IMG/VR virus record: IMGVR_UViG_2563366969_000006
Length of the DNA: 19,074 nucleotides
Strand: one strand, 5' to 3'
Source of the DNA: a virus
Taxonomy: Duplodnaviria; Heunggongvirae; Uroviricota; Caudoviricetes
Below, piece after piece: positions 1 through 16,933 of the stretch. Position numbers and translations under genes: made by a program. The notes beneath the pieces are model-generated. The model ran no database searches, was not told where the DNA came from, and worked only from the letters and a program-made list of their open reading frames with translations. Positions within the stretch are counted from its first letter, which is position 1. Every line of letters starts with the position of its first letter.

Positions 1-625
1 TTATTTACAAAAAAATGGGGAAGTATTACGGCGATTGCGAAAAGTCTGAAGCGCTTGAATTAAGATAATATAGAAAATCAGATACAACAAAAATGGCAGG
101 TAGATGATGTTAAGATAAATTGGAGCGGGCGAAGGGAACAATACAACATCACACAAGGCCAGTAATAGCGCGAATCCTGCGAGTTCTAAAATCAATTCTA
201 TACACATTTCTATACACATTTATCCCTCGCTTGAGGGTTATGCGTCATCGTTATCGGCTATCTCGCTGGTGGATGATCACGGATGGCCTGATATCTACAG
301 CCGCCTTAAAAAGCTGTACCCGACAAGCATTACTGCGTATCGGGTTCGTTCGCTCTTTCTACTCGTGGCAGATGAGTTTATCGGTGTGATTTTATCGGGC
401 GAGGGTATTGTATCAGGCATCCCCTTTTCTATGCAGATTTGCATAGTTCCGAATGGTGGCGTTATGGAAGCCTCCCATATCAGCATCATGCCCACCAGCG
501 TGAAGTATTTTTTTATTTCGCGGGTGTAAAAATTTGACGAGGCGGGCGGTCCCATAAGCAATGGATTGTAGGGATTTCGCTCCCCCCCTCCTGAATGCAA
601 TTTTTCGTATATATATACAAAACAG

Positions 626-781: not shown

Positions 782-1448
782 CACATTGCTGAAAGCAGGG
801 GTTGATAGTTCCACTGGTGCCACAGAACGGCTGAATACGGTAACTGTTGCTGGTGGTCTGTCCTGTTGTCGTTCCAGTCTCATCAAATTGAGAGGCAAGA
901 CAAAGTGTATTTTTGCACTATAGCCAAAGCCTCATAAAACAGAGTTACCCCCACAGGCTGGCAAAAACCATTACCCAACGCAATTAAGTGCGTCAGAATC
1001 GATTACAGCGCGTTCCTGTGGCACGTTGTTGCCGTTCTCAGCAGTGAAAGGAGAGCGTGAAAAGCTCATATCTATTACTGTTGAGGGGTGTAGCGGCATA
1101 TATCGCGAATATCCACGCCCTTAATCCCGATACCGTCACTACGCATTGAGATCCACCAGAAGATTAAGATAGTTTTACCTGAAATTATCCAAATAATTGT
1201 TTTAACTGATTAATTTTTCGAATATCTATTGTTAGGGAATAAATCATCAGATACACCATAAAACGACATCTTTCAGGGTGTAGAAGATGCAAAGCCGATA
1301 CTGAAGAAAAGACAAAGAATATGAATGGCTGGCCACACGATGGAAGGATTGTCCATTGAAGGATCAATCCTAATGGTATAAGTATTAATAAAACCGTGCA
1401 GCGTGCTTTTTTATCTGCGAATTCCCGCCCGGGCGGCGGTGGCATTCG

Positions 1449-1476
1449 TTAAAAACAAGGCCGCGAAAGCGGCCTG
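1449..1476 (-). terminator. Rho-independent terminator closing the large operon
   Basis: On the minus strand, stem GGCCGC / GCGGCC (1459-1474) with a GAAA-type loop, followed by TTGTTTTT, 8 nt after the stop of the 104-aa gene. Confidence 0.6.
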
Positions 1477-1483
1477 TGACATG

Positions 1484-1798
1484 TCACGATAGTTCCGTTT
1501 TGTTGAATTCAATTATATCAAGGTCAGAACTTTCGTAATCCTTACCGAATAAAGCAAAACATATCGCGTCAAGTTCTCTCTTATGTTTGGACGCCCGATC
1601 ATAATTACCACCCCAACAGCAAATGAATCCACCAAGTACTGCTGATTCAAAAAGTAATGATGCTGCATCAATATGTCTGAACCAGGAGTCTATAAGTAAA
1701 GCAGAGAGTGATATTAATGTTCCCCACCCGCCAATCCTTCTCCATTTCTCAGCTTCATATTTAAGAGAAGCAATATATTCAATTTTATCTCTCGTCAT
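1484..1798 (-). CDS. Small membrane protein (104 aa, two predicted transmembrane helices), last gene of the large operon; function unknown
   Basis: ORF with TGATG stop-start overlap to the upstream gene; two hydrophobic segments (IGGWGTLISLSALLIDSWF and ASLLFESAVLGGFICCWGG); lower GC than upstream genes. Confidence 0.6.
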   Translation of the reverse strand: MTRDKIEYIASLKYEAEKWRRIGGWGTLISLSALLIDSWFRHIDAASLLFESAVLGGFICCWGGNYDRASKHKRELDAICFALFGKDYESSDLDIIEFNKTELS

Positions 1799-4554
1799 CA
1801 GTTCCCCACCGCCTTTCCAAAATCCGGTGCTCTACGTGGCGCAATAGCACCCGGTTCCCACCAACTCGTTATGTCGAACTCCCGTTGCGCGCGGTCCCTT
1901 ACTCGATCATTGTAACCAGGGTTTGCCATCTCCTGAAGTTGTTGCAATATCAGGTGATTGGTTATCGCTTTCGCATACCACAGGTTTGCGAATGGGGTGA
2001 TCATGCGGGCTGTTTTCAGTGCATCGGCACCGAATGATGTTTCTTCACCCTGTAGAGCCTTCTGTGGGTTAGTAATCAGTAATTTTGTTAACTGCTCTGC
2101 AAAGCTCAACACAGGGCCACCCATAGTGGCACCGATGCTGGAGCCATATTGCGTATGGTCCTGGAAAATAAAATCACCGTAGATACCGAACGAACCACCT
2201 TTCAGTAAAGCCTGAACCCATGTGGTTGGTTTTGTCATATCCAGCGGATCATTACCATTTAACAAACTGTTCATCTGGATCGCAAACATACCAGCAAGAG
2301 TTGTTCCCCCGATATATGAGGCCAGAAATTTAATGGCCGGAACGGTGTCCAAATCCCGTGTTCTGTTAACAAGTTGCCGAAATCCAGCAAATGGGGTTGT
2401 TTTGAAGAGCATGAAGCTCTTCATTAACTCGCCAGCATCATCACGGGCATATGTATCAATACCCGTAGCGGTGGTCACAGCATTGGTCATCTCACCGTGC
2501 GTAATTCCCAGCAATTTCTGGGCTGCTTCAGCGCGTGCATTACGAATCATGCGCGTGATGGTCTGCTCAGCCTCAGCGTCGAATGCTTCTTTCATCCGTT
2601 TCAGGCGTTCTGGAGGGAGATCTCCAAGGGCTGCCAGTGCCTTTTCACTCCCGGCACGAATCCGGGTAATACGGTCTGCCATAATGTCGGCTATTACGTT
2701 ATCGGGCACAGCGTAAATCGCGTCTGGCGTCATCCCCATATGCCCGGCAGTAGTCATCGGCCTGAGTTCTGCCGCTGCCATGATGGCCCAGTCCTCATTG
2801 CTCCATCCCTTGTTAGCCAGAATGGTTTTATCGGTTCCTTTCATATCGTCCAGCGTCTTAAATTTTCTGGTCAGCTCGCCAATGTTTTTGTACATCAGGA
2901 GACCAAACGACGCTTTGTTTGCGCGGTCCATAGCGATCAGCCCGGACCACTTCAGTGTCTTCTCTGCGAACCAGCCAGTTATGCCGCGAGACAAGTCAAA
3001 CCCGCCCATTTTCGAAACCACAGCAGCATGTGAATCCACCAGCAGACCGAGTTCAGCATTCGCCTTTTTGGCATCTCCACTAAACAGGTTTTTGATAGTG
3101 TTAACGGAAAGCCGCATTCCACCACGGGTAAAGCCCAGCGCCTGCGCATTTGCCCGCATAATTGCCTGGTCGCTGGTTGCTGTCAGTACGCTGGTGCCAA
3201 GCATGGCGCTGGTCATCAGGTTACGCAGACCACCAACTGCTGAAGAGAACACACTCGATGAAGCGACACCATTTAGGCCAGCCATTGAGTTGAACATACG
3301 GGCAACTAATTTGGCCTCATCCTCCATTTCTTTTTTGCGTTTCCCGCCTGTTACTGCGCGCTTATAGATGCGATCCAGTACCAGGGAAAAGTTTCTTTCG
3401 GCGTCCGGACCAAAGGCTTTAACGACGCCCAAATCCCTGGATGATGATTGCAGGTGCGACATCATCACCCCCACCAGCGGCTGCTGAGTGTATCGTTCCA
3501 TATAGGCGAAGTGTGACTGCGCATCCTTGAACGCCATCACCCTGTGCTGAGAACCACGGCTCTTTATTCCTCCGGCTCCCATAAATGTACCAGGCTCAAT
3601 TTTGTTTGCCCCATCAGTGGCCTTCGTTTCAAAGATCGCTTCCAGTGCCTGACGGTACTCGACGTCATTCATAATGCTGCCGTCAGGATTAACGTAATTG
3701 CTGCGATCCTGCGTGTTGTAAGCGTCATCAACCCATTTCTGGCGGGCAAACTCAATCGGTGGCTGGCGACCTGAAAGACGTGCTGTAGCTTGCTCTGCCA
3801 CTGGTAACGATGCCAGCCATTCTTCGCGCCCGGCATTGCGAATAAGGTCAGCATCATCCACATATGGCGTATGCCAGTCTTCTCGCAGGCCTATGTCAAA
3901 GCCATTGTCGTTCATCTCATGACGAACACGGCCTGTTACATCCTTCCAAATCTGTGCAATTTTCTTCGCCAGGGGATTCCCGGTATCTTCGCCATATATT
4001 TCTTTCAGGATCTGGAGTTGTGCAGACTTTGCCGCCTGCCTGTCGAATACACTCCGAAACCGCTGCTCTCCAAGCGCCCTGCTCTGCTCGAAGAATTTGC
4101 GGACGTCATCACCTGCTTTTAGAAGTTCAGCACTGAGCTGACGGGACCAGTCCTGATATGCCCCAATTGCAAGTTCTTCAGCAGAAGTAACGGAGATATC
4201 AGCTTTGTCTCTCGATCGTCGGCCAGCAAAAATAAACTGCTGCAAATTAACAGGTGTCTGCTGATCAGGCGGGATGTTAGCATCGAGAGTGTCAGTAATT
4301 TTACTGATGGCGATCGCATTCTGGGCAACACGCTGTCTTTTCTTGTACACATCATGAACCACACGCTGGCGTACCAGTTCTGCTGCATCCATGTATGTTT
4401 GAGCATCAGGAATACCACTTTTGCCTTCTTTGGCATTCTTTCTGTGCACATGCTGCACAGCTTCTTTGATACGATCTTCAATATTTTTCAGCTCATCAGC
4501 CTTTGGCTGGCGACCAAGTGTCTGCGCAATAGCTTCCACACATGCCTGTTTCAT
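1798..4554 (-). CDS. Large hypothetical protein (about 918 aa), Gly/Ala-rich hydrophobic stretches, no NTPase motif; possibly internal-virion/ejection-like
   Basis: Long ORF. Likely start is the ATG at 4552-4554, preceded by GAGGAA and in a TAATG overlap with the upstream stop, rather than the unsupported ATG at 4575. No Walker A found on reading. Confidence 0.75.
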   Translation of the reverse strand: MKQACVEAIAQTLGRQPKADELKNIEDRIKEAVQHVHRKNAKEGKSGIPDAQTYMDAAELVRQRVVHDVYKKRQRVAQNAIAISKITDTLDANIPPDQQTPVNLQQFIFAGRRSRDKADISVTSAEELAIGAYQDWSRQLSAELLKAGDDVRKFFEQSRALGEQRFRSVFDRQAAKSAQLQILKEIYGEDTGNPLAKKIAQIWKDVTGRVRHEMNDNGFDIGLREDWHTPYVDDADLIRNAGREEWLASLPVAEQATARLSGRQPPIEFARQKWVDDAYNTQDRSNYVNPDGSIMNDVEYRQALEAIFETKATDGANKIEPGTFMGAGGIKSRGSQHRVMAFKDAQSHFAYMERYTQQPLVGVMMSHLQSSSRDLGVVKAFGPDAERNFSLVLDRIYKRAVTGGKRKKEMEDEAKLVARMFNSMAGLNGVASSSVFSSAVGGLRNLMTSAMLGTSVLTATSDQAIMRANAQALGFTRGGMRLSVNTIKNLFSGDAKKANAELGLLVDSHAAVVSKMGGFDLSRGITGWFAEKTLKWSGLIAMDRANKASFGLLMYKNIGELTRKFKTLDDMKGTDKTILANKGWSNEDWAIMAAAELRPMTTAGHMGMTPDAIYAVPDNVIADIMADRITRIRAGSEKALAALGDLPPERLKRMKEAFDAEAEQTITRMIRNARAEAAQKLLGITHGEMTNAVTTATGIDTYARDDAGELMKSFMLFKTTPFAGFRQLVNRTRDLDTVPAIKFLASYIGGTTLAGMFAIQMNSLLNGNDPLDMTKPTTWVQALLKGGSFGIYGDFIFQDHTQYGSSIGATMGGPVLSFAEQLTKLLITNPQKALQGEETSFGADALKTARMITPFANLWYAKAITNHLILQQLQEMANPGYNDRVRDRAQREFDITSWWEPGAIAPRRAPDFGKAVGN

Positions 4555-6614
4555 TATGGGTTCCTCAAGAAGCACGCTGCTGCTACAGAATAAACCTTCG
4601 ATTCGTTCTGGACTGTCTTAATCTGTTCATCCAACTCAGCCAGGAGATCAGAAAGTTTTGTCGGGTTTCCGGTTTCCGGGTGAGCTATAGTCAGCTCAGG
4701 ATTGGCAACAGCCATGTCCCTGGCAGCCATAAGGTCATAGCTGTTGGATGAGAGAACCTGCCCTGTATCTGGATCAACGCTGATGTCCCCTCTGTGTTCA
4801 CCAGCCGATGAGAAAGCACTTTCAGCACGAGGGACAGGCGATTCACTAATTGGCTCTGATGATGTTTCGTATCTGACACCATTTTCTTCAAAAACCTTTT
4901 GTATTTCATGGTATTGCTCTTGGTAAGTATCAGATATATCTGATCGCAATGGACCATCAAGCCCTCGCGCCATCCCCCCAACATTTACAGGCTGACCATC
5001 ATTAAGTTGCCTGTATGCTTCATCCATGGCGTCAACATGGCTGTTGATGCTCTCATTGCTGGTATGAAGCACTGGTGACGATTCAATATCGTAATGAAGC
5101 CCCTCATTCAAAATGTGGGCTGCATCAATATCGCTTGGTTTTATTCTTTCCCTCGCCCGGATACCAAAAACTTTTTCTACTGCGGCTTCCAGTTTCATAT
5201 TGCGAAGACGCATACTTACGAGTAACCGTAACTGCTCAGGTGTAACGGTTCCAACCTGAATACCACTGTATCTGAATATATAGGCTTTAAAACCTGAAAT
5301 AATTTTTTCCCATGATGAAACGCTTGTCTTTAGAGATGGATTTACTGCATGTGCGGCAACTTCTTCAGCGTACAACCACTCAGGATATGTTTCAGGGTAC
5401 TCACCCCTTTTCTTATATTCATAATATTGTGACATCCCATATGCAAATTCAGGATAGTCAGAATGCTTGTTTGCAGATTTAAGTACAGCATTAGCTAGCT
5501 TTCTGGCCTTCCAGTCAGGGTAATGGCGCTGCTCAAGATGAAGCGCCTCGTGATGAAGGGTTTCTAACAGTTCTTCATGGTCTTTTAATCCATTAATATT
5601 TATTCTTATTATTGGTTCTTTTCCGGAAGCTACTGTCACATGACCTTTATTCAGAAGTATTTCTCCATCACTATTTTTTATTGCTGGTTCATTAATAAGT
5701 TCTATTACTCCTGAATCAGATAAATCACGAACCATTGACTCAATGTTACCATCAGGAGATTGCTGATAATGTTCACCAAAAGTTGATTTTATTTCTTCTG
5801 CAGAAATGTTCGACTCTGTACCATCATGGTTATTATGGGTAGTCAGGTGATGAACGCCACCAAAGACCCCGCCTAAAACGGCATCGACTAACATCGCCTG
5901 ACCGTCAAATACCCGGTACTGTTTTGCCATCTCCGTGTAGCCTTTTTCCTCCAGTGTTGCGCCTACTGAGTAACGGTTCAGTCCACCGAATCCGGTGTTG
6001 ATTGCCACACCTGAGGCAATGCGCGTTGCCAGTGTGGTGCCGACGGCAGCGGGTAAGGCCATACCCACAGCATTGAAAAGGCTCTGCTGCGTTGCCAGGT
6101 TACGCGCTGTAGCCTCGTCTACTCCCTTCCCTTTAAAATCCTGATAGGACTGCTCATACGTAGAACTGAAGGCTGTAGCAGCGCCGATGAGCGGACCACC
6201 AAACATAGTTGTTCCGATTGCAGGAACAAATTTACCAAGCTCATTTAATACCTCAGCCGCCATTCCCTGGCTGCCTGCATCAGGCTTCACATAGCTGCGG
6301 GCATCCTGTAACTGTTTTCCGATCGTGTCGTATGTATCATTCAGTGTTTTGTCAGCATCAGGGAACATCTCCCGAAAAATATTAACTGTCGGTGCCACGT
6401 CTGCGGTAAATGCCGGATCGCTAATCAGACGCTTGCTGAATCCGACGGCAGACTGCGCGAGACCGAGAGCCCCCTCCGCCACGCCGCTCAAAAGTGCAGT
6501 ACCTGAACCCTGGAAGGGAGTCGGATCGTAGTCTTCTGGCCTTGCTGGGTTGGCAACTGTTTTGTCGTCAATCCATGCCTGACCTTCTGGAGCCAAAGAA
6601 AAAACATCAGACAT
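4554..6614 (-). CDS. Large hypothetical protein (686 aa) with an HExxH (HEALH) zincin-like motif and Gly/Ala-rich hydrophobic region
   Basis: Long ORF; TAATG overlap with the upstream 843-aa gene; GAGGG ribosome-binding site; ETLHHEALHLEQRH encoded around 5534-5560; no P-loop. Confidence 0.75.
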   Translation of the reverse strand: MSDVFSLAPEGQAWIDDKTVANPARPEDYDPTPFQGSGTALLSGVAEGALGLAQSAVGFSKRLISDPAFTADVAPTVNIFREMFPDADKTLNDTYDTIGKQLQDARSYVKPDAGSQGMAAEVLNELGKFVPAIGTTMFGGPLIGAATAFSSTYEQSYQDFKGKGVDEATARNLATQQSLFNAVGMALPAAVGTTLATRIASGVAINTGFGGLNRYSVGATLEEKGYTEMAKQYRVFDGQAMLVDAVLGGVFGGVHHLTTHNNHDGTESNISAEEIKSTFGEHYQQSPDGNIESMVRDLSDSGVIELINEPAIKNSDGEILLNKGHVTVASGKEPIIRININGLKDHEELLETLHHEALHLEQRHYPDWKARKLANAVLKSANKHSDYPEFAYGMSQYYEYKKRGEYPETYPEWLYAEEVAAHAVNPSLKTSVSSWEKIISGFKAYIFRYSGIQVGTVTPEQLRLLVSMRLRNMKLEAAVEKVFGIRARERIKPSDIDAAHILNEGLHYDIESSPVLHTSNESINSHVDAMDEAYRQLNDGQPVNVGGMARGLDGPLRSDISDTYQEQYHEIQKVFEENGVRYETSSEPISESPVPRAESAFSSAGEHRGDISVDPDTGQVLSSNSYDLMAARDMAVANPELTIAHPETGNPTKLSDLLAELDEQIKTVQNESKVYSVAAACFLRNP

Positions 6615-9145
6615 TATTCAACCCTCACGACAATAGCTTTATTGGTTCTGGGATCTGTTGCCCAGCGTCCGCTACCATTTACAAGCCGATACCGGTTATT
6701 GCCGATATTAACTGGCGTGAAATTTGACACTGCATTTACGTTAAGTCCGGCATCTTTCAGTGCTTGTTTCGCAGATGTGGTATAGCGATCTTTGAAAGTA
6801 GATTTATCCATGCCAAAAGGCATTACAACGTCGCCGCCATTAAAACCATTGTATATACCGCCAGTAGCATACTTCACGGCATCAGCTACAATGTCTGTAT
6901 CAGGCATACTGGTTCTTACCGTAGAGGCATCACCAGATTGATAAGCTATTCCTGCGTAAGCGGCTTTGAAAAGGCTATAACTGATCTGGCGTAACTGCGG
7001 GTTACGGGCAAATGCATTACCTACCTGTTCGTCGAAAGCGTCTTTCATCTTATCTTCGCTCGGCAACTGTACCGGAGTTATGCCCGCATTCTTCATGGCC
7101 TTCGTCGGATTCAGTAGTTGGTCGCCGGAAAGAATAACCTTTGCAACGTCGTACTTGTTCATCGTCGGCTTATACCCGATGAACTGACTATATGGGATCG
7201 TCGGCCTGGTGTTGTCGTACTGGTTATCCGGCGTGCCCAGCAGCAGCGCAGAATAGGCTGTTGCCGCACTGTTCGGAGCAATTACAGATGCCACCTGCCG
7301 TATTGCTGGCGCAGGCAGCTTCTCCCCCATGCTCTGCAACAGTTTAATTGTCTGGTCAACGTTCTGAGTGCCGCGCACCTGCTGTGCCAGCGCAGCCGCC
7401 TCTTCACTGTTGAGGAGTGGGGCATTAATTCCCAACGCGCGTAAGCTTTCCTGCGACGAGAAACGGTTAGCCACCTCGGCAGTGATGTCGTCAGGGTTGT
7501 TGCTGGTGATCGGCTTATAGGCTCCGATTTCCACCGCTGCACTAAACGGATTATTCTGCCTCTGGGTTATTACCTTCGTGGCTGCCGCCGATACCCGGTC
7601 GAATAACTCCGCACGAGACGCATACCCCTCCCCTGTCTCACCAGTATCCGGGCGTAATTGCTCAACATATGCGGTAATGCTGCTTGTCGGCATGTTGCGG
7701 AAAGAGCCTATATACTGTCCGGCGATCTGCAAATTTCTGAACTCGGTATATCGCAGGTTTCCTTCTCTGACACCATAAGCAGCAATGAACTCACCCTCAC
7801 CAGGCGGGTTAGGAAATTCAACGCCACGCATATACGCAGCCGTTGCATCGCGAACCCGGCTTTCGAGCATCGTTCTATATTCAGCCTGCTGCTGTCTGGC
7901 TAATGCATCCGTCTGTCGCAACACGCTGGCCTGATCTGATTCACTTAAAGCATCGAACCAGGCTACACCGGTATAACGTTTATTTTTTGTCGGTAGCTGA
8001 GAAAGCCCCAGTGCGGCACTAACGCCAGCGGCCAATTGCTGATCACTGTACGGCTGACTGCCTTGCTCATGATGAATAATTGCTTTGCACAGAGATTTCA
8101 GTGTGTCAGGATTTGATGCGTCAAGCGGCTGGTCAGGAGTTACACCGAGCTGAGCACATACTGCCCGTATATAAGCATCAGTTTTATTATCATCACTGGC
8201 CGGTGCCCAGCGATTAATTATTTCGCTGATGGTGTCATAACCCTGACGCTGATACGACAGCAAATTGCGACCAAGCGCGCGAATACCGTGTTCAGGGGTT
8301 TCGAATTTGGCAAAGCGACCATCATCACCAGTCTGCCCAACCCACGGATTAGTTTTGCTGTATTCAAGATTGCCGGGGTTATTGTTGCGTATACCGCGGG
8401 TACGATCGGAAGAGCCACTATCTGCTACAGCACGGCGAGATCCAGCAGCAGTATCGCTTAACTCGCCATTTTGCTGTCTTACCTGAAGATAGTTTGCTCC
8501 AATAGCATTTTGAGCAGTTGCTTTTGCTGTTGCTTCTTTAAACTCGATTTTCTTGGCCTGGATTTGCTCGTCGCTCCAGCCATGCGCAATACCGTAATCC
8601 TCAATTTGCTGGAAAGTTTGCGTATTAGCCAATATGTATGCTGCGTTGTCGCCATATAATGCTGAGGCATTTTTACCATTATTCAGCAGTGTCGCCTGAA
8701 ACTGGCCTTCTTCGTAGGCATTTATTTGCCCTATCTCGTACCTCCCGGCCTGCGTAGCGAACTGAATACGCTGCTGCTGCGCCTGCTGCATGAAAGCATT
8801 ACGAGCCTGTTCATCCGGCAGCGACATAGCCAGTTGTTCGATCTGAGCATCAAACTGCTGTGTATACTCATGGCCTTTTCCAATAGCATTTTTCCCTTTC
8901 AGGTTAAGCAATCCTGTTTCAGGATTATTCAGCAGATCACTGCCTGTCTGACTGAGTTTAAGGGATGCCTCCTGAATCAAGGCAATATTGGCACGCTGTT
9001 TTGCCTGACCAAAAACATCAATTGCCTCTGCCCCTGCCCGAACAAAAGCATCACCAATACCTGGCTGAGAAAACGTCTGCAAGCCTGCTGACTGAACTCC
9101 ACGGCTCTCAACCTGACGTCCGGATACTGTTGGTACGACTGGCAT
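6614..9145 (-). CDS. Large hypothetical protein (843 aa), Gln/Ala-rich, with a conserved-looking block GIRNNNPGN...W.G...G.FA.F (possible peptidoglycan-hydrolase-like or virion-associated domain; unverified)
   Basis: Long ORF with a strong AGGAGG ribosome-binding site 6 nt upstream of the ATG; motif block encoded around 8155-8395; no P-loop. Confidence 0.75.
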   Translation of the reverse strand: MPVVPTVSGRQVESRGVQSAGLQTFSQPGIGDAFVRAGAEAIDVFGQAKQRANIALIQEASLKLSQTGSDLLNNPETGLLNLKGKNAIGKGHEYTQQFDAQIEQLAMSLPDEQARNAFMQQAQQQRIQFATQAGRYEIGQINAYEEGQFQATLLNNGKNASALYGDNAAYILANTQTFQQIEDYGIAHGWSDEQIQAKKIEFKEATAKATAQNAIGANYLQVRQQNGELSDTAAGSRRAVADSGSSDRTRGIRNNNPGNLEYSKTNPWVGQTGDDGRFAKFETPEHGIRALGRNLLSYQRQGYDTISEIINRWAPASDDNKTDAYIRAVCAQLGVTPDQPLDASNPDTLKSLCKAIIHHEQGSQPYSDQQLAAGVSAALGLSQLPTKNKRYTGVAWFDALSESDQASVLRQTDALARQQQAEYRTMLESRVRDATAAYMRGVEFPNPPGEGEFIAAYGVREGNLRYTEFRNLQIAGQYIGSFRNMPTSSITAYVEQLRPDTGETGEGYASRAELFDRVSAAATKVITQRQNNPFSAAVEIGAYKPITSNNPDDITAEVANRFSSQESLRALGINAPLLNSEEAAALAQQVRGTQNVDQTIKLLQSMGEKLPAPAIRQVASVIAPNSAATAYSALLLGTPDNQYDNTRPTIPYSQFIGYKPTMNKYDVAKVILSGDQLLNPTKAMKNAGITPVQLPSEDKMKDAFDEQVGNAFARNPQLRQISYSLFKAAYAGIAYQSGDASTVRTSMPDTDIVADAVKYATGGIYNGFNGGDVVMPFGMDKSTFKDRYTTSAKQALKDAGLNVNAVSNFTPVNIGNNRYRLVNGSGRWATDPRTNKAIVVRVE

Positions 9146-9241
9146 TAGTAACCTCCTATTTTGAATCGGGAGTCAGAATTCATAAAACCTGAGTTAGATA
9201 ACATTGGCGTCCCTCTGCTTTGATGCTGTACCAGCGATTCA

Positions 9242-9448
9242 TTACTCACCCCCCGATGCAAAACCATTCTGATTAAGCCAGGCGTTTACGGCATGTCTGA
9301 CAATCTGCGCCACGCCTGGTAATGGCTGATCAGGGTGATTGTTCACATGGTCGATTCTGTACTGCTTAAGGCGCATCACGGTCTGTGCATCCAGATGAAC
9401 GGAACCACCTCTGACATCGCCTGTGTTCAGGTCGTTAATACAATTCAC
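9242..9448 (-). CDS. Small hypothetical protein (68 aa) leading the large operon; possible regulator
   Basis: ORF just downstream of a candidate promoter and upstream of the 843-aa gene; the GAGG ribosome-binding site is unusually close to the ATG, so the start is uncertain. Confidence 0.4.
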   Translation of the reverse strand: MNCINDLNTGDVRGGSVHLDAQTVMRLKQYRIDHVNNHPDQPLPGVAQIVRHAVNAWLNQNGFASGGE

Positions 9449-9480
9449 AGCAATTTCCTCTTACTGACTAAACTATGCAC

Positions 9481-9509
9481 ATTATTGATCTGAAAAAGTG
9501 GTAGATAAA
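9481..9509 (-). promoter_or_regulatory. Candidate sigma70 promoter for the large operon (minus strand: -35 TTTATC, 17-bp spacer, -10 AATAAT)
   Basis: Hexamers read from the sequence between the upstream terminator and the 68-aa ORF; not experimentally supported. Confidence 0.3.
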
Positions 9510-9547
9510 CATATTTCTATCACAAAAACAGATTGATTGATTTCAGC

Positions 9548-9573
9548 CAAAAAAAAGCCGGATTGCTCCGGCT
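9548..9573 (-). terminator. Rho-independent terminator separating the replication/SSB/ProQ block from the large operon
   Basis: On the minus strand, stem AGCCGGA / TCCGGCT with a 4-nt loop, followed by a run of 8 T. Confidence 0.7.
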
Positions 9574-9813
9574 CTGTGCTTACTTCTGGTAGTTACGCCA
9601 TACTGATTTCCCGATCCCATCTATCCCCATTTCTTTTTCAGTGCGTTTAAGCGACCGTTTCAGGTCTTCTAAATTATCCGGTTGCTTCGGTGGCCTCTGC
9701 GCCTTCCTGGAACATTCCAGTCGTCGCATTGATATGTAATACCGTTCCTTGTCAGTTCCCCAACTGCATTACTTCACCCCATCGCGCCGCCGCTCTTCGG
9801 TACAGGGTTTTAG

Positions 9814-10230
9814 TTAGCCTCCGACTCTTCCGTAGTGCTGTTCTGGTGGATTCACATAGCCCCTTTCTTGCAGGTATTCGCGAATATCAGACATCAGGAG
9901 ACGGTTAACCGTGCTCTTGTCTTTTCTCCGGTAAAGGCGTCTGGTGATCATGAAGTAGTTAGCAATGATCTCCGGTATATCCCTGACGCTGATACATGCT
10001 GTATGCTGGTCAATAGCTTCAATCATCTCTTCACGAGTTACAAAAGTCTGGCGTAAACGAGTGATCACACCATGTACATCTGAATGATCATTTATACGCT
10101 TATTTTGGCGCTTCGCGCTCTCGACTGTGACACTGACAACAATGTCAACTCTTTGTTTTTCCGCAATTTCATCCACAATGTGATCACCTGCACGGCGACC
10201 ATGTGCGTGATCATTTCTTACTATTTCCAT
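9814..10230 (-). CDS. Hypothetical protein (138 aa), His-rich N-terminus
   Basis: ORF with GGAGGAG ribosome-binding site; overlaps the 3' end of the ProQ/FinO gene by 20 nt; no family recognised. Confidence 0.5.
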
Positions 10231-10708
10231 TCATCTCCTCCAGTAGTTTTCCTGCGTGCGTCTGTTGTAGTGGTGTTACCTCGCCGCACGGCTGGCCTTT
10301 CAGGTCGTAACGCGCGCCACCAGCTACCAGGGCGCGGTAATAGCGCGGAGTCTGCACATAACGCGCCAGCGTTGCGCGTAGTGTTCCCTGTCCGAGTGAA
10401 ATACCTCTCGCGGCAATATCCTGTATCAGGTCGTCAAATATCCCCACCTTAAGCGGCTTAGGTGATTCCTGGCTGAATAATTCAGGCCATAGCTCAATAA
10501 GACGGTTAACGCGTCTGCGGTTTTTACGCTGCTGTTTGGTCATACGCCGCCGCGGTGTTGCTCCTGTGAGCTTCTGCTGTGTGTTCTGGTTATCTGGCAT
10601 CACTTTATGCGCCGATGTGGTTTTATTCTGCTGCTGCGCCGCCTGTGCTGTTTTCTGCGGCGTGCCGTAAATGCCCTTCGGTTTTCTGTTTATGGTCAGC
10701 TTTGTCAT
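10211..10708 (-). CDS. ProQ/FinO-family RNA-binding protein (165 aa) with a basic N-terminal extension
   Basis: The segment [60 protein letters not shown] aligns by eye with the ProQ N-terminal FinO domain (LKIGIFQDL...LRSALRLYTSSWRYL...RVDLDGNPCGE). Confidence 0.7.
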
Positions 10709-10744
10709 GCCTTCCCCTGTAATTACTCTGTTCGCTGTTGTGAA

Positions 10745-11170
10745 TTAAAACGGTATCCCGTCCCCGTACGGATCATCGTGCTGGCCTGTCTGTTGCTTTG
10801 CCCTGTTCAGTGCATCAGTAGCCTGCCCCTGCTGGCCTTTTTTGCCGCCCGGTCGCGCCGTTCGCGCACTGATTACGCTGTCTGCGATAACCTGCCATCC
10901 CTGCCTCGTTTCGCCGTTCTGGCCCGTCCACCGGCTCACCTGCATGTTACCGGCCACGCTCACCAGTTCGCCTTTGTGGTGTTTTGCCAGTGCGTCAGCC
11001 TGTCTGCCAAACGCCAGGACGGATAACCACATCGTCGCCGTTCCGTCATCTGTCTGATTGCATGGAAGGGGGACCGCCATACTCGCCATCGCCATTTGTG
11101 TGCCCTTGCTGGTGGTCTTTAACTGCGGGTCAGCCACCAGCCGCCCGTAAGCTGATATTTGCGCCGTCAT
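10745..11170 (-). CDS. ssb: Single-stranded DNA-binding protein, divergent short form (141 aa)
   Basis: OB-fold-like N-terminal region, Gly/Gln-rich linker and an acidic C-terminal tail ending DDPYGDGIPF, comparable to the SSB DDDIPF tip; GGAGAA ribosome-binding site. Confidence 0.7.
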   Translation of the reverse strand: MTAQISAYGRLVADPQLKTTSKGTQMAMASMAVPLPCNQTDDGTATMWLSVLAFGRQADALAKHHKGELVSVAGNMQVSRWTGQNGETRQGWQVIADSVISARTARPGGKKGQQGQATDALNRAKQQTGQHDDPYGDGIPF

Positions 11171-11232
11171 GCTGTTTGTTCTCCGGTTTTAACGTGATAG
11201 TTACGCTTGTTTACACTCTTACAGTGAAATTT

Positions 11233-11358
11233 TGCGGGTTACAATCGCACATTTGCGGGTTATAACTGCCGTTTTGCGGGTTACGTGCGGGTTATTAATT
11301 TCCTTTTTAATCATTCAGTTAATTAACTTATGCACAGGATAACCCGCATAACCCGCAA
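11233..11358. repeat. Iteron cluster B (putative origin): TGCGGGTTA at 11233-11241, 11254-11262, 11275-11283 and 11286-11294 (21-bp phasing), AT-rich spacer, then inverted ATAACCCGCA copies at 11339-11358
   Basis: Seen directly; lies immediately 3' of the primase/helicase-like gene; same 9-mer as cluster A. Confidence 0.75.
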
Positions 11359-11380
11359 CTTTTTACCTCACACAGGGAAG

Positions 11381-13507
11381 TTAATCTTCTGCTTCAGGCT
11401 GGAACATCAGCACGTAAAAAATATGTTGCTTCCCGCCAATCCTGCCGAGCGCCTTTTTCTTGTAACGGCGGTCGCCTCCCGCTTCCAGCATTCCGGCTGC
11501 ACTCAACGCGCGGGCAAAGTGAGACGGATTAAATCCCTGTGCTATCTCACCCTCAAACACATGCGGGAACGTGTAAAAACGGAACTCGTCATCTTCGTTT
11601 CTGATACTCCCCTTTCTGTATCCGGCAAGGTCTTTAATCGGTAAATCACGCTCGTCGCTGTTTGGATAGGGAAGGTATCGACTGAACCCGAACGACGACA
11701 AAAACGCCTCAGCCTGTTCAACCATCTGTTTAAATTCCCTGTTGCCCGTGCCGAATTCCTTCACCCAGGCATTAAAGTTATGCTGAACTGCATCACGGCA
11801 CGCCTGAACATCCCAGCCTGTAACATGACCGGAAAGCACAAGCGCGGCCTCCAGTACGGCGAATCTTTCCCCCACACGGTGAACCTGCTCGCCGTAGCTC
11901 TCCGGTATCAGGTTGCGCCACCGCTCGCGACATGCCCTTACCGCGTCCTTTGCCTCCTGCTGGTGGCCTGCCAGCCATTTAACCCACTCACGACCTGCCG
12001 CCCCGTGATTTTCTGTCCAGGCATCTTTTAACGCGTCTGCGTGCGCCTTTCCGGTGCTGTATTCGTGAAACTGCGAGGCCTTTTCCATCGGTACGTTAAG
12101 CAGACGGACAAGCTGCCCCGCTTTAATTTTTATCCCTTCCGTTTTGAGGAATGTTTCAACGTCCATTTCTCCGGTGCTGATTGCCACCGTGCGCCAGTGT
12201 TTTATCTCCCTGTTGCCGCCGTCCTTCGCCCCCTGTAATTTCCCGGAACCGTTAAACAGCGTATAGGCTGACGTGGACACCTCCCGTGCGTTTCCGGCCT
12301 GGCCTATTTCATCCAGGGGTAACAGCCCGTCATTATGTGCTTCGGCCTCGTTGGCGATACCTAACGCCGTTCCGTACCAGGTCAGCCGTTGCGCGTCCGG
12401 CTCTCCCCATAAACTTGATGCAATGTTCTGTGTGGTGGTTTTACCTGCTGATGATTGCTCAAAAAGATGAACCCCGAAGCCGTCAGCACCCACCAGCCCG
12501 ATTAATGGTGCAGATAGCGATACCGCCACACCCAGCATCATGGACGGATTACCACCAGCCAGCCGTGCCACGGTATCGCGCCAGCCCTCCGCTGTTCCCG
12601 CCACGGAATAGCCATTAACAGCGGCAGTTTTTCCGGTAAACAGGATGGGTTTCTCTGATTCACCGATGATCGAACCATCCGGCATGATGTACGCACCAAA
12701 ATGCCACCCCGTTGTTGTGCTTAACTGCCATTCCTCATGGTTTCCGCTTAACTGCATCCAGTCAGCCAGGATAGCCCTGTATTTGCCGTTGGTCGTCACG
12801 TTAAGGCCGTGGTCTTTCAGCAACCGCCAGCCGTCACGGTCACCAATGCCTCCGCACGGGACCGCCATTGTAATGACCTCATGGTTTGCTGGTTTTTTCC
12901 AGCGCATCACGCGGTAATGCTCTTTGCCGATTGTTCCTGTTCCCAGTAGTTCAAGCGGAGAACATAACCACGTCTCAGGCCGGATAATTTCGCCTGACTG
13001 CTTGTCCACTTTGGGCGTTACCCAGAAAACACCATCGACGCGACTTTCAACACGAGGCTTTAATTCGTCATCATAATTTCCGGTGAAATTTGTCTTCGCC
13101 GGAAGGTTGATCACCAGACTGTTACCGCGTTCCGCATCATACTTCAGTCCAGCCATGCGCGGAGTCCAGTCCTCCGGCTGCTGATCAACAAAGCTGCGGT
13201 AGCAACGCGCCTCCTTCACACCCGCCACTGCAAGCAGTGTCGCTATCTGTGTAAGGTGCTGCTCTGATATTTCACCAGCACGATAAATGCGCACGTAATA
13301 GCGTCCTTTGTCGATGATTTGCGTGTCTGCCAGACTCGCCAGTTGTTCCGGTCCAAGAATAACTGGATGTGTATCATCTGCCGCAATATGCTTTCCGGCC
13401 CATTCGCTCCACTCTTTCGCATGTGCCCAGGCATCACTACCCGCAAAGATAATCACCTCCGTCATTTTGTCTTTCGGCTGGTGCTTTAAATTCGGTGCGC
13501 GTTTCAT
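11381..13507 (-). CDS. Replication protein, primase/helicase-like (708 aa; P4 alpha-like role, DUF927-type P-loop helicase domain)
   Basis: Walker A-like SSAGKTT and Walker B-like LLPLDE in the central region; ATGA start-stop overlap with the upstream gene; adjacent iterons. Confidence 0.65.
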   Translation of the reverse strand: MKRAPNLKHQPKDKMTEVIIFAGSDAWAHAKEWSEWAGKHIAADDTHPVILGPEQLASLADTQIIDKGRYYVRIYRAGEISEQHLTQIATLLAVAGVKEARCYRSFVDQQPEDWTPRMAGLKYDAERGNSLVINLPAKTNFTGNYDDELKPRVESRVDGVFWVTPKVDKQSGEIIRPETWLCSPLELLGTGTIGKEHYRVMRWKKPANHEVITMAVPCGGIGDRDGWRLLKDHGLNVTTNGKYRAILADWMQLSGNHEEWQLSTTTGWHFGAYIMPDGSIIGESEKPILFTGKTAAVNGYSVAGTAEGWRDTVARLAGGNPSMMLGVAVSLSAPLIGLVGADGFGVHLFEQSSAGKTTTQNIASSLWGEPDAQRLTWYGTALGIANEAEAHNDGLLPLDEIGQAGNAREVSTSAYTLFNGSGKLQGAKDGGNREIKHWRTVAISTGEMDVETFLKTEGIKIKAGQLVRLLNVPMEKASQFHEYSTGKAHADALKDAWTENHGAAGREWVKWLAGHQQEAKDAVRACRERWRNLIPESYGEQVHRVGERFAVLEAALVLSGHVTGWDVQACRDAVQHNFNAWVKEFGTGNREFKQMVEQAEAFLSSFGFSRYLPYPNSDERDLPIKDLAGYRKGSIRNEDDEFRFYTFPHVFEGEIAQGFNPSHFARALSAAGMLEAGGDRRYKKKALGRIGGKQHIFYVLMFQPEAED

Positions 13508-13806
13508 TTCTTGCCCCTGAATGCGTTAATCATGTTCTTTATTACCTGAATATTTGCCCGTGCTTTCTCTTTACTGGTGGGCTTACTGCGTGGTGCTGCA
13601 CATACCAGTGAAAAATCACGCCGGAACTGATGAACGGGCATCACACAGTCATAGTCGTACCCTGCGCGGCGGTATGTAATGTGCCGTTCATACACGGAAT
13701 TAATAACCACGCTGTCGCCATATTTATCCCGGAAAATATCCCCGATCCTGATTTTCGGATGAGTCTGTCCGCTGGCATTTAAGCCAGTAAATTTAATCTT
13801 CTTCAT
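13504..13806 (-). CDS. Hypothetical protein (100 aa) directly upstream of, and coupled to, the replication gene
   Basis: ORF with ATGA overlap to the primase start; occupies the position held by epsilon/orf151 in the P4 operon (position analogy only). Confidence 0.5.
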   Translation of the reverse strand: MKKIKFTGLNASGQTHPKIRIGDIFRDKYGDSVVINSVYERHITYRRAGYDYDCVMPVHQFRRDFSLVCAAPRSKPTSKEKARANIQVIKNMINAFRGKK

Positions 13807-13808
13807 GT

Positions 13809-14066
13809 TTATTTCCCGGTGTGAGGTTCTTCTTTATATTTATGGGCTAACAAATCTGGTAATTGCCTGTATTTATCCTCGGCAATATATTCAGAATAAT
13901 CGACAGCACTGTTCAGTATATCTAACGCCGTTTCATGCTCCAGATTCGAAACTATAAGGAACGTTGCTACTTTTAGCATATTCGCGATATGCAAAAGAGC
14001 ATCAATTTCATTTTTTGGCGCTTCACTGAATTTTTGCTCCAGAAGAATAAATCGTTCATCACGCAT
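13809..14066 (-). CDS. Hypothetical protein (85 aa)
   Basis: ORF with AGGGGGAA ribosome-binding site; start overlaps the stop of the upstream 67-aa gene by 8 nt. Confidence 0.5.
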   Translation of the reverse strand: MRDERFILLEQKFSEAPKNEIDALLHIANMLKVATFLIVSNLEHETALDILNSAVDYSEYIAEDKYRQLPDLLAHKYKEEPHTGK

Positions 14067-14262
14067 AGTATTCCCCCTGACGGATGCGAGCAGTAAATAC
14101 CATCACGCAGCCAGCCGGGGATTGCTGACGGGCTTTCTGTTCGCTGGTGGCCTCGATGTGGATTACGCGCGGTTGTGCCGTGCTCAGGGCGATAAAACGC
14201 CAGATGTATTTATTCAGGTTGTGCGAGTCCCGCCCTTGCGGGTGTGTGGTATGATTTAACAT
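14059..14262 (-). CDS. Hypothetical protein (67 aa), first gene of the replication operon
   Basis: Internal ATG at 14260-14262 preceded by GAGGT; this is the C-terminal part of an implausible 386-aa ORF in the track. Confidence 0.45.
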   Translation of the reverse strand: MLNHTTHPQGRDSHNLNKYIWRFIALSTAQPRVIHIEATSEQKARQQSPAGCVMVFTARIRQGEYYA

Positions 14263-14343
14263 AGCTACCTCGATACGCTTTCTATCGTTGGTGGTTAGAC
14301 GCCCTGCATGTGTTGCGAGCACTGCGGGGCGTTGCTCTTTCAG

Positions 14344-14425
14344 GTGTATTTCACCTTTGCTTTTTAATTTACTCACTGGTGAAATACACTTCAAGCCTTT
14401 TTTTATCATTTTTTTTGCGTATACT
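14344..14425. promoter_or_regulatory. Divergent promoter/operator region: perfect 12-bp inverted repeat GTGTATTTCACC (14344-14355) / GGTGAAATACAC (14378-14389); candidate minus-strand promoter (-35 TTGAAG, -10 TAAATT) and plus-strand -10 TATACT (14420-14425)
   Basis: Inverted repeat seen directly; promoter hexamers are by-eye matches to consensus. Confidence 0.5.
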
Positions 14426-14455
14426 GACATACACCAATTTTTAGGAGATCCAGAA

Positions 14456-14635
14456 ATGGCAACTGGTGCAAAGAACGCAAAATCACAAATGACAACTGTC
14501 AGAATCCCACATGAAGTAATGGATGATATTGAGCAACTTAAAGAACCTGGCGAAAGTACCGCTGGTTTTTTAGTTACTGCCGCAAAAGGCGAGATCAAAC
14601 GCCGCCAGCGTCGCAAGGCCAAAGAGCAGGAGTAA
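14456..14635 (+). CDS. Small putative DNA-binding regulator (59 aa), possibly ribbon-helix-helix-like
   Basis: ATG at 14456 with AGGAGA ribosome-binding site 8 nt upstream; N-terminal TTVRIPHEVMDDIEQL resembles a beta-strand-helix RHH start; only plus-strand gene block in the island. Confidence 0.5.
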   Translation: MATGAKNAKSQMTTVRIPHEVMDDIEQLKEPGESTAGFLVTAAKGEIKRRQRRKAKEQE

Positions 14636-14692
14636 CCATCACCAGCGCCGTGGTGCGGTGAACTGTGGCGCACAGGGTTACAGGTATCTACG

Positions 14693-14890
14693 ATGACTGA
14701 CAAATCATTAAAGAAATTATCCTCATCCAGGAAAAAACAACGCAAAAATGCGGTAAGCGAACAAGAACAGGAAAGATTTGCGCCATGTGCGTTTGTCCTT
14801 GAGAAGTTCTTAAAAGAGTACAGGCGCACAAAAATGGAATCGCATACCTGGAAAACATCGCAGTATGGCGATGCTAAAGAGCAGGAATAG
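14693..14890 (+). CDS. Small basic hypothetical protein (65 aa)
   Basis: ORF downstream of the 59-aa gene, weak ribosome-binding site; shares a duplicated 3' end (AKEQE-stop) with it; followed by a terminator. Confidence 0.35.
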   Translation: MTDKSLKKLSSSRKKQRKNAVSEQEQERFAPCAFVLEKFLKEYRRTKMESHTWKTSQYGDAKEQE

Positions 14891-14980
14891 CCCACCAGCA
14901 AGCCAGCACACTGATCACATTGCCCACCAGCCGCAAATCTGGCATTGTTGGCGATGCGTTTGATTTCCTTTGTTCCCACT

Positions 14981-15008
14981 GGCGACCTATCCCGGTCGCC
15001 TTTGTTTT
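14981..15008 (+). terminator. Rho-independent terminator for the plus-strand small-gene unit
   Basis: Stem GGCGACC / GGTCGCC with 6-nt loop followed by TTTGTTTT; convergent with the Bro-N gene. Confidence 0.65.
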
Positions 15009-15058
15009 GCCTGTTATCCAGCAACGGGGCGCTTTTTCTTTCTGTAACGTTCGGATCG

Positions 15059-16433: not shown

Positions 16434-16508
16434 AAAAACTCCGCTATCGAATTAAGTTACTTTTTATTTGCTAGTGGATAGCTTGGGCAATAACCCGTAG
16501 CTATTTAA

Positions 16509-16706: not shown

Positions 16707-16775
16707 CTATTTACCTCATAACGTCTACTCAATTTGACGAGGTAATCATGGCACAGAAATAACGAATATTTTCAT

Positions 16776-16918: not shown

Positions 16919-16933
16919 ATGCGGTATGGTGCG

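Follow-up and report, generated by a model that had tools for sequence, protein, structure and literature searches.

A candidate DNA-ejection module of Uetakevirus type on a satellite-like island of Escherichia coli

What are three very large proteins, encoded by coupled genes, doing on a stretch of phage DNA that has no capsid, portal or terminase gene? The question is raised by IMG/VR record IMGVR_UViG_2563366969_000006 (19,074 nt; the whole stretch is referred to here as the window), whose open reading frame (ORF) list shows four translationally coupled minus-strand genes, for proteins of 843, 686, 918 and 104 aa, between two terminators. An earlier note, written from the letters alone, had taken this block for an undescribed injected-effector, defence or anti-defence module on a satellite-like island. 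Guided by homology of the three large proteins to ejection proteins of podoviruses, we hypothesize that the block, hereafter the cassette, is the DNA-ejection module of a satellite of the phage-inducible chromosomal island (PICI) type that exploits epsilon15/phiV10-like podoviruses (genus Uetakevirus). We put the probability of this function, which we infer, at roughly 0.5; the reading draws on the protein identities, the discreteness of the satellite-like element, purifying selection on the cassette genes, the enrichment of Uetakevirus prophages in island-bearing genomes and a pattern that runs through the satellite family.

Identity of the cassette proteins

Each of the three large proteins matched a PHROG family over its whole length: the 843-aa protein matched phrog_992 (E 1e-289), the 686-aa protein matched phrog_1145 end to end (E 2e-136) and the 918-aa protein matched phrog_684 (E 2.5e-295). 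A Pfam search of the three gave no match. The DNA at ~1414-9200 is ~78% identical to Enterobacter phage BUCT554 and to Salmonella phages E15 and epsilon15, and the ends of the block are 86-92% identical to phiV10-type coliphages, all of these phages belonging to the genus Uetakevirus. The syntenic genes of phiV10 are p18 ('head protein'), p19, p20 ('virion structural protein') and p21 (small membrane protein), followed by a terminator; p18-p21 close the late operon, after the tail protein p15 and the 'internal virion proteins' p16 and p17. For epsilon15, Hardies et al. assigned gp13 as internal virion protein (IVP)-A, gp14 as IVP-B of the T7 gp14 type, gp15 and gp16 as IVP-C type and gp17 as IVP-D, a homolog of T7 gp16 (PMC4819975). 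The cell-wall-hydrolase-like block suspected earlier is real: residues ~249-403 of the 843-aa protein have matches in a solved endolysin structure, 7q47 (E 4e-18), and at the N-terminal end of Gp29, a 1295-aa protein in entry 9vvp (9vvp_L; E 1e-40). Together, the PHROG matches, the phiV10 synteny, the gp13-gp17 assignments and the endolysin match identify the three large proteins, by homology, as podovirus ejection (internal virion) proteins of Uetakevirus type.

The likeness to podovirus internal-virion or ejection proteins on a satellite-like island, which the earlier note had drawn, thus stands on PHROG matches spanning E 1e-136 to 1e-295 and on phiV10 synteny. Its description of the set as undescribed does not, since the proteins fall in well-populated, ordinary phage virion families. 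The 843-aa protein is 78% identical to its prophage homolog and 62% to phiV10 p18, and the 918-aa protein is 89% identical to its prophage homolog, 87% to that of a second island lineage (L079, described below) and 30% to phiV10 p20.

The architecture of the block also agrees with a phage origin. The gene sizes and coupling noted earlier were confirmed by the ORFs and by their stop-start junctions (TAATG at 6614, TAATG at 4554 and TGATG at 1798); the open frame of the third gene reaches a GTG at 4575 (925 aa), and the 918-aa length is that from an ATG at 4554, which overlaps the stop of the gene before it. Terminators do lie on both sides, as hairpins with T-runs at 9575-9554 and 1475-1458. 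With epsilon15 gp15-gp17 and phiV10 p18-p21 the cassette agrees in homology over the full length, in the order of the genes and their stop-start coupling, in the muralytic domain of the first protein, in having a gene for a small membrane protein in last place, and in the terminator and palindrome. It differs in standing outside a structural operon, with no tube, IVP-A, IVP-B, portal or capsid gene and only 67 nt of the IVP-B gene, and in that its gp16 homolog has an orphan HExxH domain for the central coiled-coil. Functional analogs are the T7 gp14/gp15/gp16 and P22 gp7/gp20/gp16 ejectosomes, whose proteins travel inside the capsid and leave it to bridge the envelope, one of them possibly with a muralytic domain (PMC8954989, PMC4819975); the cassette proteins would likewise belong to the ejected core. 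In sequence the relation to T7 and P22 is remote: a gp14-family remnant, and neighbouring prophage genes as annotated in RefSeq, were the only direct matches.

The fourth gene occupies a variable position, which in other island copies holds an unrelated 113-aa gene. Its 104-aa product has one or two hydrophobic segments and found no family match in PHROGs, Pfam or PADLOC. As for composition, no Walker A motif was found in the block proteins, in line with the earlier reading that the large proteins have no P-loop. The Gln/Ala-rich stretch (50% Q+A over a 30-aa window of the 843-aa protein) and the HExxH motif (a single HEALH, at residue 355 of the 686-aa protein) are likewise present, whereas the Gly/Ala-rich segments claimed in the same breath are only moderate (at most 37.5% in 40 aa).

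The alternative put forward in the earlier note was a new defence or abortive-infection system, poor in enzymes and without relation to virion function, and the position in satellite cargo, the lack of known defence domains and the HExxH motif would fit it. The proteins are, however, orthologous to virion ejection proteins in sequence, order and coupling, and the module has no sensor-effector-like architecture. PADLOC returned 0 families for nine island proteins, including all four of the block, and nothing pointed to abortive infection. We consider such a system scarcely credible.

The island and its family

The window is 99.9% identical over its whole length to the chromosome of E. coli Z1323CEC0019, where the element is bounded by a tRNA-Gly gene adjoining the integrase on one side and by a glycoside hydrolase gene and ETT2 type III secretion genes on the other. 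The spacing of the att repeats gives an insertion of 19,118 bp. The island is thus as self-contained and satellite-like as had been suspected, bounded by att repeats with chromosomal genes on both flanks. No structural module, which the earlier note had named as a refutation, continues past the window, where chromosome flanks the 19.1-kb island. Capsid, portal and terminase genes are absent from the window, as noted earlier, and from 15 kb of chromosome on each side; the Pfam and PHROG searches and the annotation of the element showed no capsid, portal, terminase, tail or lysis genes on the island.

The backbone (Icd-like, DUF4222, primase, SSB, ProQ/FinO and PerC genes) is part of a very large, mosaic family; 2,310 E. 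coli genomes have some match to it. Beyond PerC these relatives are empty or carry unrelated genes, so the cassette sits in the variable cargo slot of the family. A second lineage with the same cassette is represented by two IMG/VR contigs, L079 and L077, which encode Bro-N, Ash, a 919-aa Zn-ribbon/Toprim/DUF927 primase, SSB, small ORFs, the cassette, a YafO-like gene and an integrase. Their cassette specifies proteins of 837, 632 and 918 aa (the third frame opens at an upstream GTG, for 925 aa) and is their sole set of virion genes. Between L079 and the window, identity is 80% for the integrase, 61% for the DUF927 region of the primase and 74%, 62% and 87% for the cassette proteins. The two ends of L079 share a 45-nt overlap, spaced 19,194 nt apart, and neither chromosomal flank nor tRNA is present; L079 was therefore assembled from a circular or concatemeric molecule.

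A published relative is EcCIMP1, a 19,963-bp PICI at tRNA-Thr of E. coli MP1 (Pick, Stadel, Raivio, ISME J 2025, PMC11773190). EcCIMP1 excises only when the podovirus Kapi1 (vB_EcoP_Kapi1) is present, is transduced by Kapi1 at low frequency and raises the superinfection immunity of Kapi1 lysogens with no recognised defence system; it did not lower helper titres on induction (PMC11773190). Its genes 017-019, 3′ of the primase, resemble helper 'DNA transfer proteins' and DUF2824, and its authors proposed a packaging role for them (PMC11773190). RefSeq places four genes directly after the TOPRIM/DUF927 primase and a 53-aa ORF; their products are a DUF2824 protein, a protein of 225 aa, a 'phage DNA ejection protein' and a lytic-transglycosylase protein of 906 aa. 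The third of these is homologous over its full length to P22-type gp20, with 25-28% identity to phage copies. The primases of EcCIMP1 and L079 are 78% identical over their whole length, and the 53-aa ORF of EcCIMP1 (12666-12827 of its record, L093) closely resembles a 57-aa ORF of L079 (6092-6265). Both ORFs directly precede the ejection module and have a ribbon-helix-helix-like pattern, conserved though the modules are non-homologous.

The element in the window accordingly belongs to the published EcCIMP1-family satellite type, and its proteins to ordinary phage families. It resembles EcCIMP1 in size (19,118 against 19,963 bp), tRNA insertion, P4-type integrase, AlpA, AntA/B, DUF4222, Icd-like, DUF927 primase and PerC genes, and in an ejection-type gene block directly 3′ of the replication genes; the insertion sites are tRNA-Gly and tRNA-Thr, respectively. 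The blocks themselves differ: that of EcCIMP1 is P22-type (DUF2824/gp14-like, gp7-sized, gp20-like and transglycosylase), includes an IVP-A-type gene and is 25-28% identical to phage copies, whereas that of the window is Uetakevirus-type, lacks IVP-A and IVP-B and has 78-92% nucleotide identity to phage copies. By sequence comparison, then, the same slot is filled in closely related satellites by ejection modules that are not homologous, one P22-type and the other Uetakevirus-type. No other observation argues as strongly for the cassette being a functional, helper-matched part of the satellite.

The island has an integrase with att repeats at a specific site and an AlpA and primase/SSB replication module, as PICIs do. 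It departs from the PICI definition, which allows no phage structural or lysis genes, in its three ejection protein genes, and EcCIMP1 departs likewise. No match to the P4-like satellite genes Sid, Psu and Delta was found among the island proteins. Like the capsid-forming PICIs (cf-PICIs), the island encodes a subset of virion components and would take the remainder from a helper (10.1101/2022.09.08.507074); the cf-PICIs make capsid, portal and packaging proteins of their own and need the helper for tails only, whereas the island encodes only ejected core proteins. In the literature searched, no paper was found that describes satellites supplying ejection proteins. A satellite with its own ejection genes, which the earlier note had called unusual, nevertheless has a precedent in EcCIMP1, where a P22-type module occupies the same position; the authors of that study did not read it so. 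Exchangeable ejection modules on podovirus satellites, and the orphan insert described below, appear to be unrecognised in that literature.

Distribution and selection

Among 5,426 complete E. coli genomes, 558 had some match to the block, mostly in Uetakevirus prophages. An island-type copy (at least 96.9% identity) was present in 37, from varied hosts and countries, and a ~78% prophage-type copy in 12, the one inspected being a complete prophage. In other species, sampled at one genome per species, 13 loci carried homologs of the 843-aa protein; the four closest were inspected and all were complete prophages. Six island copies were analysed in detail; they came from chicken in Korea and the USA, humans in Taiwan and China, turkey in the UK and chicken meat in Switzerland, and one of the strains lacks ETT2.

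The ORF lengths of 2532, 2061 and 2757 nt were identical in all six copies. The adjoining PerC gene (9580-9805, minus strand) was frameshifted in 6/6 and intact in co-resident prophages and related islands, so that a fixed pseudogene lies beside 7.3 kb of intact cassette ORFs. The only disrupted copy seen among the 37 was that of NZ_CP135671.1, which has an ISVsa5-family IS4 element within the cassette region. The island copies are mosaics of alternative sequence blocks, all in frame. Pairwise ratios of nonsynonymous to synonymous change (dN/dS) for the first gene were 0.10-0.33 among the six island copies and 0.06-0.08 against the prophage homolog; between the window and a divergent island copy they were 0.196, 0.016 and 0.069 for the 843-, 686- and 918-aa genes, the 686-aa gene showing 18 synonymous differences and 1 nonsynonymous. 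Together with the kept ORF lengths, these values demonstrate that the three cassette genes are under purifying selection.

An orphan insert in the second protein

Alignment of the 686-aa protein with six homologs showed that the family N-terminal (~1-260) and C-terminal (~490-686) parts are kept and that the coiled-coil segment at the centre is replaced by ~240 unrelated residues, which contain the HEALH motif. The GC content of the insert is 38.4%, against ~50% in the rest of the cassette. It had no Pfam match, and an exhaustive HMMER search of 1.84 billion cluster representatives returned no relative but a fragment of itself. The insert occurs in exactly the 37 island genomes and in no prophage of the ~520 genomes with Uetakevirus-type matches. 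Across the six island copies, 7 synonymous and 1 nonsynonymous variable codons were counted (P 1.5e-4), with HEALH invariant at the amino-acid level.

A weak match over 200 positions linked the insert to phrog_10089, 'DarB-like antirestriction' (E 2e-4), and its only BLAST matches were giant DarB-like proteins of Ralstonia Gervaisevirus phages. The protein of one of these, phage GP4, has the same order of elements (a beta-strand, HExxH in the form HEMFH, ~60 residues, AEE..A.A and VTPxQLR); MAFFT placed the HEALH and HEMFH motifs 4 residues out of register. A single-sequence AlphaFold model of the insert was of low confidence (pLDDT 49). We consider the insert to be probably a zincin-like domain as found in polyvalent virion proteins, its fold and catalysis being predicted, that has been kept by selection. 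It is like P1 DarB and the Gervaisevirus giants in the phrog_10089 match, the GP4 motif order and its place within a protein expected to be injected, and unlike them in being a single ~240-aa domain rather than a multi-domain giant. Of the earlier suggestion of a polyvalent-type effector, it is only this insert, through its phrog_10089 match, that lends some weak support.

Capture of the cassette

The boundaries of the homology indicate how the cassette may have been acquired. Uetakevirus homology begins 67 nt upstream of the first ATG, within the 3′ end of the T7-gp14-family (IVP-B) gene of the prophages, and stops just beyond the operon terminator, which indicates that the cassette was captured together with the 3′ terminator of the operon and 67 nt of the upstream core gene. 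The linkers at 9147-9213 (67 nt) and 1421-1488 (68 nt) are 100% identical to the co-resident prophage in the reference genome, and the genes between them are unrelated. The 5′ junction of L079 is different: the IVP-B remnant is missing, and the palindrome precedes the ATG at a distance of ~40 nt.

Copies of this palindrome, GTGACATGTCAC, are also present in the prophage and in phiV10, where they border the terminase operon and lie at the end of the structural operon. Its sites (23064, 25329 and 42486 in prophage L005; 2262 and 19493 in phiV10, L002; ~6550 in L079) lie before terS, after terL, after the ejection cassette and beside terminators, and it is commoner than in any of 100 shuffles in both prophage L005 and phiV10. 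The palindrome could serve to bind a regulator or as a boundary for recombination. We also considered the region upstream of the L079 cassette as a homolog of the terS-upstream region of the prophage, but the two have only the 12-bp palindrome in common.

Such junctions raise the possibility that the cassette is a functionless passenger, a late-operon fragment brought in by illegitimate or linker-mediated recombination and still intact through youth or through gene conversion by phage copies. The breakpoint inside the IVP-B gene, the mosaic of phage-like blocks in the island copies, the exact 67/68-nt linkers common to a co-resident prophage that encodes RecT and an exonuclease, and the high mosaicism of a backbone family most members of which lack the cassette would all be expected of a passenger. 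The insert exists in no phage, however, and so could not be refreshed from one, yet it shows 7 synonymous against 1 nonsynonymous codon changes and its whole gene 18 against 1. Nor would a passenger explain why PerC decayed in every inspected copy and the neighbouring 7.3 kb of cassette ORF did not, or why the diverged second lineage, with its different 5′ junction, kept the same cassette. The P22-type module of EcCIMP1, at only 25-28% identity to any phage copy, likewise implies long independent maintenance on a satellite. We therefore regard a passenger as improbable.

The same flanks could allow transfer in the opposite direction, with the island serving as a reservoir that donates an alternative ejection module to helper prophages by double crossover through the linkers and so switches their type. 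Judged by sequence, E. coli Uetakevirus prophages have at least two alternative cassettes 3′ of the conserved IVP-B gene (a three-protein epsilon15 type and a two-protein type of 915 aa plus a 1129-aa DUF919 protein), the 67-nt and 68-nt flanks common to the island and the resident prophage are perfect, and the palindrome marks module boundaries in phage, prophage and islands. The insert-bearing gene is nevertheless confined to the 37 island copies, with 0 cases in the ~520 genomes with Uetakevirus-type matches, so that this direction of transfer was not observed, and the island would gain no obvious selective benefit. A reservoir role is very improbable.

Co-resident prophages and the proposed role

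If the island exploits Uetakevirus helpers, such prophages would be expected beside it. A second Uetakevirus-type locus was found in 25/37 island genomes and in 521/5,389 others (odds ratio 19.5, Fisher P 4e-17, in a test that takes no account of clonal relatedness). The second locus was located in three genomes. Each time a prophage of Uetakevirus type lay between guaA and yfgI and was complete, having genes for terminase, portal, capsid, tube, IVP-A, IVP-B, tailspike and lysis. Strains Z1323CEC0019, Ec-RL2-1X and 2022E04-002 are among those with both elements. In all three the ejection cassette differs from that of the island, consisting of a 915-aa protein, to which the 843-aa protein is 34% identical overall and 44% over the N-terminal ~520 aa, and a 1129-aa DUF919 protein that is unrelated to the 686- and 918-aa proteins of the island. 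In the sampled cases, the island thus holds a cassette type that its neighbour prophage lacks.

These observations allow us to propose a role for the cassette. Induction of a resident Uetakevirus helper would lead to excision of the island by Int and AlpA and to its replication with the primase and SSB. Island concatemers would be packaged in helper-built capsids, two copies amounting to 38.2 kb against 39.1 kb for phiV10. The gp15, gp16 and gp17 homologs of the island would be made at that time and loaded on the portal core of the helper procapsid with the IVP-A and IVP-B of the helper. At the next infection, the island proteins would be ejected, digest peptidoglycan and build a trans-envelope channel for the satellite DNA, and the HExxH domain within the gp16 homolog would be carried into the recipient cell as a passenger effector. 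Because the sampled helpers carry a different cassette (915-aa plus DUF919 protein), we speculate that a set of its own lets satellite particles enter cells that exclude the ejectosome of the helper, including helper lysogens. Another possible reason for a separate set is that it avoids 7.7 kb of homology with the helper.

Several points weigh against this proposal. Besides the uncorrected relatedness of the genomes in the co-occurrence test, 12/37 island genomes show no second Uetakevirus locus. The island has no IVP-A or IVP-B, so its proteins need to be compatible with those of the helper, and its first protein is only 34% identical to the helper counterpart. The candidate promoter of its own that the earlier note had assigned to the module could not be confirmed: a consensus scan of 9449-9553, upstream of the module, gave no sigma-70-like promoter, and only a weak TTTATC-N17-AATAAT candidate was seen there by eye. 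No sharing of the late-promoter region of the helper with the island was found, nor any pac-like or regulatory sequence common to the island and the resident prophage beyond the two linkers and the palindrome, and a Pfam/PHROG search of the island proteins matched none of the packaging-redirection families (TerS, Ppi, Rpp, capsid morphogenesis). Induction, packaging and transfer of the island, and entry of its proteins into particles, are themselves steps that we infer. Last, EcCIMP1 is transduced very inefficiently, and its sole reported phage phenotype is added superinfection immunity (PMC11773190), which would fit a role in exclusion at least as well.

In such a role, the ejection paralogs would block the ejectosome of a superinfecting Uetakevirus at the envelope, or would co-assemble as dominant-negative core subunits of the helper and cut its infectivity. 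That EcCIMP1 boosts the superinfection immunity of Kapi1 lysogens with no known defence system (PMC11773190), that the window island also has no PADLOC match, that the cassette lies in a variable cargo slot, where satellites often carry anti-phage genes (PMC10121019), and that it is mismatched with the cassette of 3/3 sampled co-resident prophages are all consistent with exclusion or interference. The full length of the genes and the constraint throughout, muralytic domain included, nonetheless exceed what a decoy or poison needs, and the island co-occurs with Uetakevirus prophages rather than excluding them. EcCIMP1, moreover, left helper titres unreduced on induction (PMC11773190), and a tie between its immunity and its ejection genes is conjectural. 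We regard exclusion or interference, the main rival of an ejection module, as possible but unlikely.

To our knowledge, satellites alter capsid size, DNA packaging or tail use or build capsids of their own, and we know of none that supplies the proteins by which DNA crosses the envelope. Modules of two podovirus groups in the same slot, under purifying selection, suggest that satellites of short-tailed phages control DNA entry themselves. If the ejection-module reading is right, it would define a new point of satellite-helper conflict, offer an explanation for the superinfection immunity of EcCIMP1 and its 'DNA transfer' genes, and provide natural interchangeable ejectosome cassettes with which to study the specificity of genome delivery by podoviruses. 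The HExxH insert, which is specific to the island, would then be a candidate for an effector delivered by virions. Because they carry 'structural' genes, such elements are now filed as defective prophages or low-confidence PICIs. A bolder extension, which we think decidedly unlikely, is that EcCIMP1-family podovirus satellites form an unrecognised class with an exchangeable, helper-matched ejectosome, armed here with an injected, orphan metallopeptidase-like domain that acts on the recipient. This domain could, for example, inactivate a defence or exclusion factor or trigger a resident helper prophage.

Other features

Feature coordinates are collected in Table 1. Coding direction across the window is minus-strand nearly throughout.

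Table 1. Features of the window and, in the last three rows, ejection cassettes of co-resident prophages in the numbering of each prophage record
Feature	Position	Strand	Remarks
att core	120-138		19-nt direct repeat TTGGAGCGGGCGAAGGGAA; second copy at the tRNA-Gly 3′ end, just past the right end of the window
3′ linker	1414-1497	-	From Uetakevirus late operon; palindrome and intrinsic terminator
Downstream intrinsic terminator	1458-1475	-	Hairpin and T-run
Palindrome	1476-1487		Perfect, 12 bp, GTGACATGTCAC; overlaps stop codon of the 104-aa gene
104-aa small membrane protein gene	1484-1798	-	Coupled via TGATG
918-aa gene	1798-4554	-	epsilon15 gp17/phiV10 p20 homolog; internal virion protein D type (T7 gp16 counterpart); phrog_684
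686-aa gene	4554-6614	-	epsilon15 gp16/phiV10 p19 homolog; N- and C-terminal parts conserved, centre replaced; phrog_1145
Orphan insert	5139-5852	-	Residues ~255-492 of the 686-aa protein; contains HEALH
843-aa gene	6614-9145	-	epsilon15 gp15/phiV10 p18 homolog; muralytic domain; phrog_992
Peptidoglycan-hydrolase-like domain	7937-8401	-	Residues ~249-403 of the 843-aa protein
5′ linker	9146-9213	-	IVP-B gene 3′-end remnant and ribosome-binding site; capture breakpoint
68-aa protein gene	9242-9448	-	phrog_4934; between upstream terminator and first large gene
Upstream intrinsic terminator	9554-9575	-	Hairpin and T-run; divides backbone (PerC pseudogene) from module
Satellite backbone	9580-17737	-	PerC pseudogene, 138-aa protein, ProQ/FinO, SSB, DUF927 primase, DUF4222, Icd-like, BRO-N, AntA/AntB, AlpA, 267-aa protein
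DUF927 primase, 708 aa	11381-13507	-	PF06048
Two small annotated genes	~14456-14890	+	Exception to backbone strand
AlpA	16509-16706	-	PF05930
int-alpA RNA motif	17748-17815	-	Rfam RF02996; 46.9 bits against gathering score of 35.8; between integrase and 267-aa gene
Tyrosine integrase	17860-19074	-	P4-type arm-binding, central and catalytic domains; adjoins tRNA-Gly
Two-protein cassette, L005	35445-41581
Two-protein cassette, L086	4634-10770
Two-protein cassette, L087	41829-47965

The 68-aa gene was absent from the list of the earlier note. Judged on topology only, its product is possibly a ribbon-helix-helix regulator; a single-sequence AlphaFold model reached a pLDDT of 62, and a fold search with that model gave no meaningful match. 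The gene was considered as a homolog of phiV10 p06/epsilon15 gp3, which is of equal size and opens the late operon; a late promoter would then have been kept. This identity was rejected because there was no protein similarity, the DNA could not be aligned and tblastn gave no hit in the phage collection. Homology to the 53/57-aa ORFs of EcCIMP1 and L079, which occupy the same position, was not established either (19-23% identity). An 18-mer shared with the resident prophage, inside terL, looks like chance.

In the guaA-site prophages, a tRNA-Arg gene lies between the large terminase and portal genes (L005 25730-25806; L087 32118-32194). On the island, the 138-aa protein (9814-10230, minus strand), between ProQ/FinO and PerC, has an Ant-like PHROG match at residues 57-127 and a weak 'terminase' PHROG match (phrog_1711, residues 5-68, E 2e-10), the sole hint of a packaging gene there. 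The 708-aa primase has neither the Zn-ribbon nor the Toprim domain of the 918/919-aa primases of EcCIMP1 and L079, and its residues 1 to ~146 (phrog_2850) are unrelated to those primases; on these grounds it may rely on another priming activity. Between AlpA and the 267-aa gene lie two tandem 33-nt direct repeats, 85% identical, and two 17-nt repeats, AAAATACCCTCAGGGTA (16789-16854 and 16881-16919), which are candidate operator or iteron sites.

The ~1.3 kb between the att repeat and the cassette terminator (139-1413) has no RefSeq-annotated gene. It holds short ORFs, among them a hydrophobic one of 86 aa (1185-1445), and at 725-766 a tandem repeat of 21 nt. The sequence of this region is different in other island copies and includes the small gene WP_000708858.1, which is also present 3′ of the cassette in co-resident prophages.

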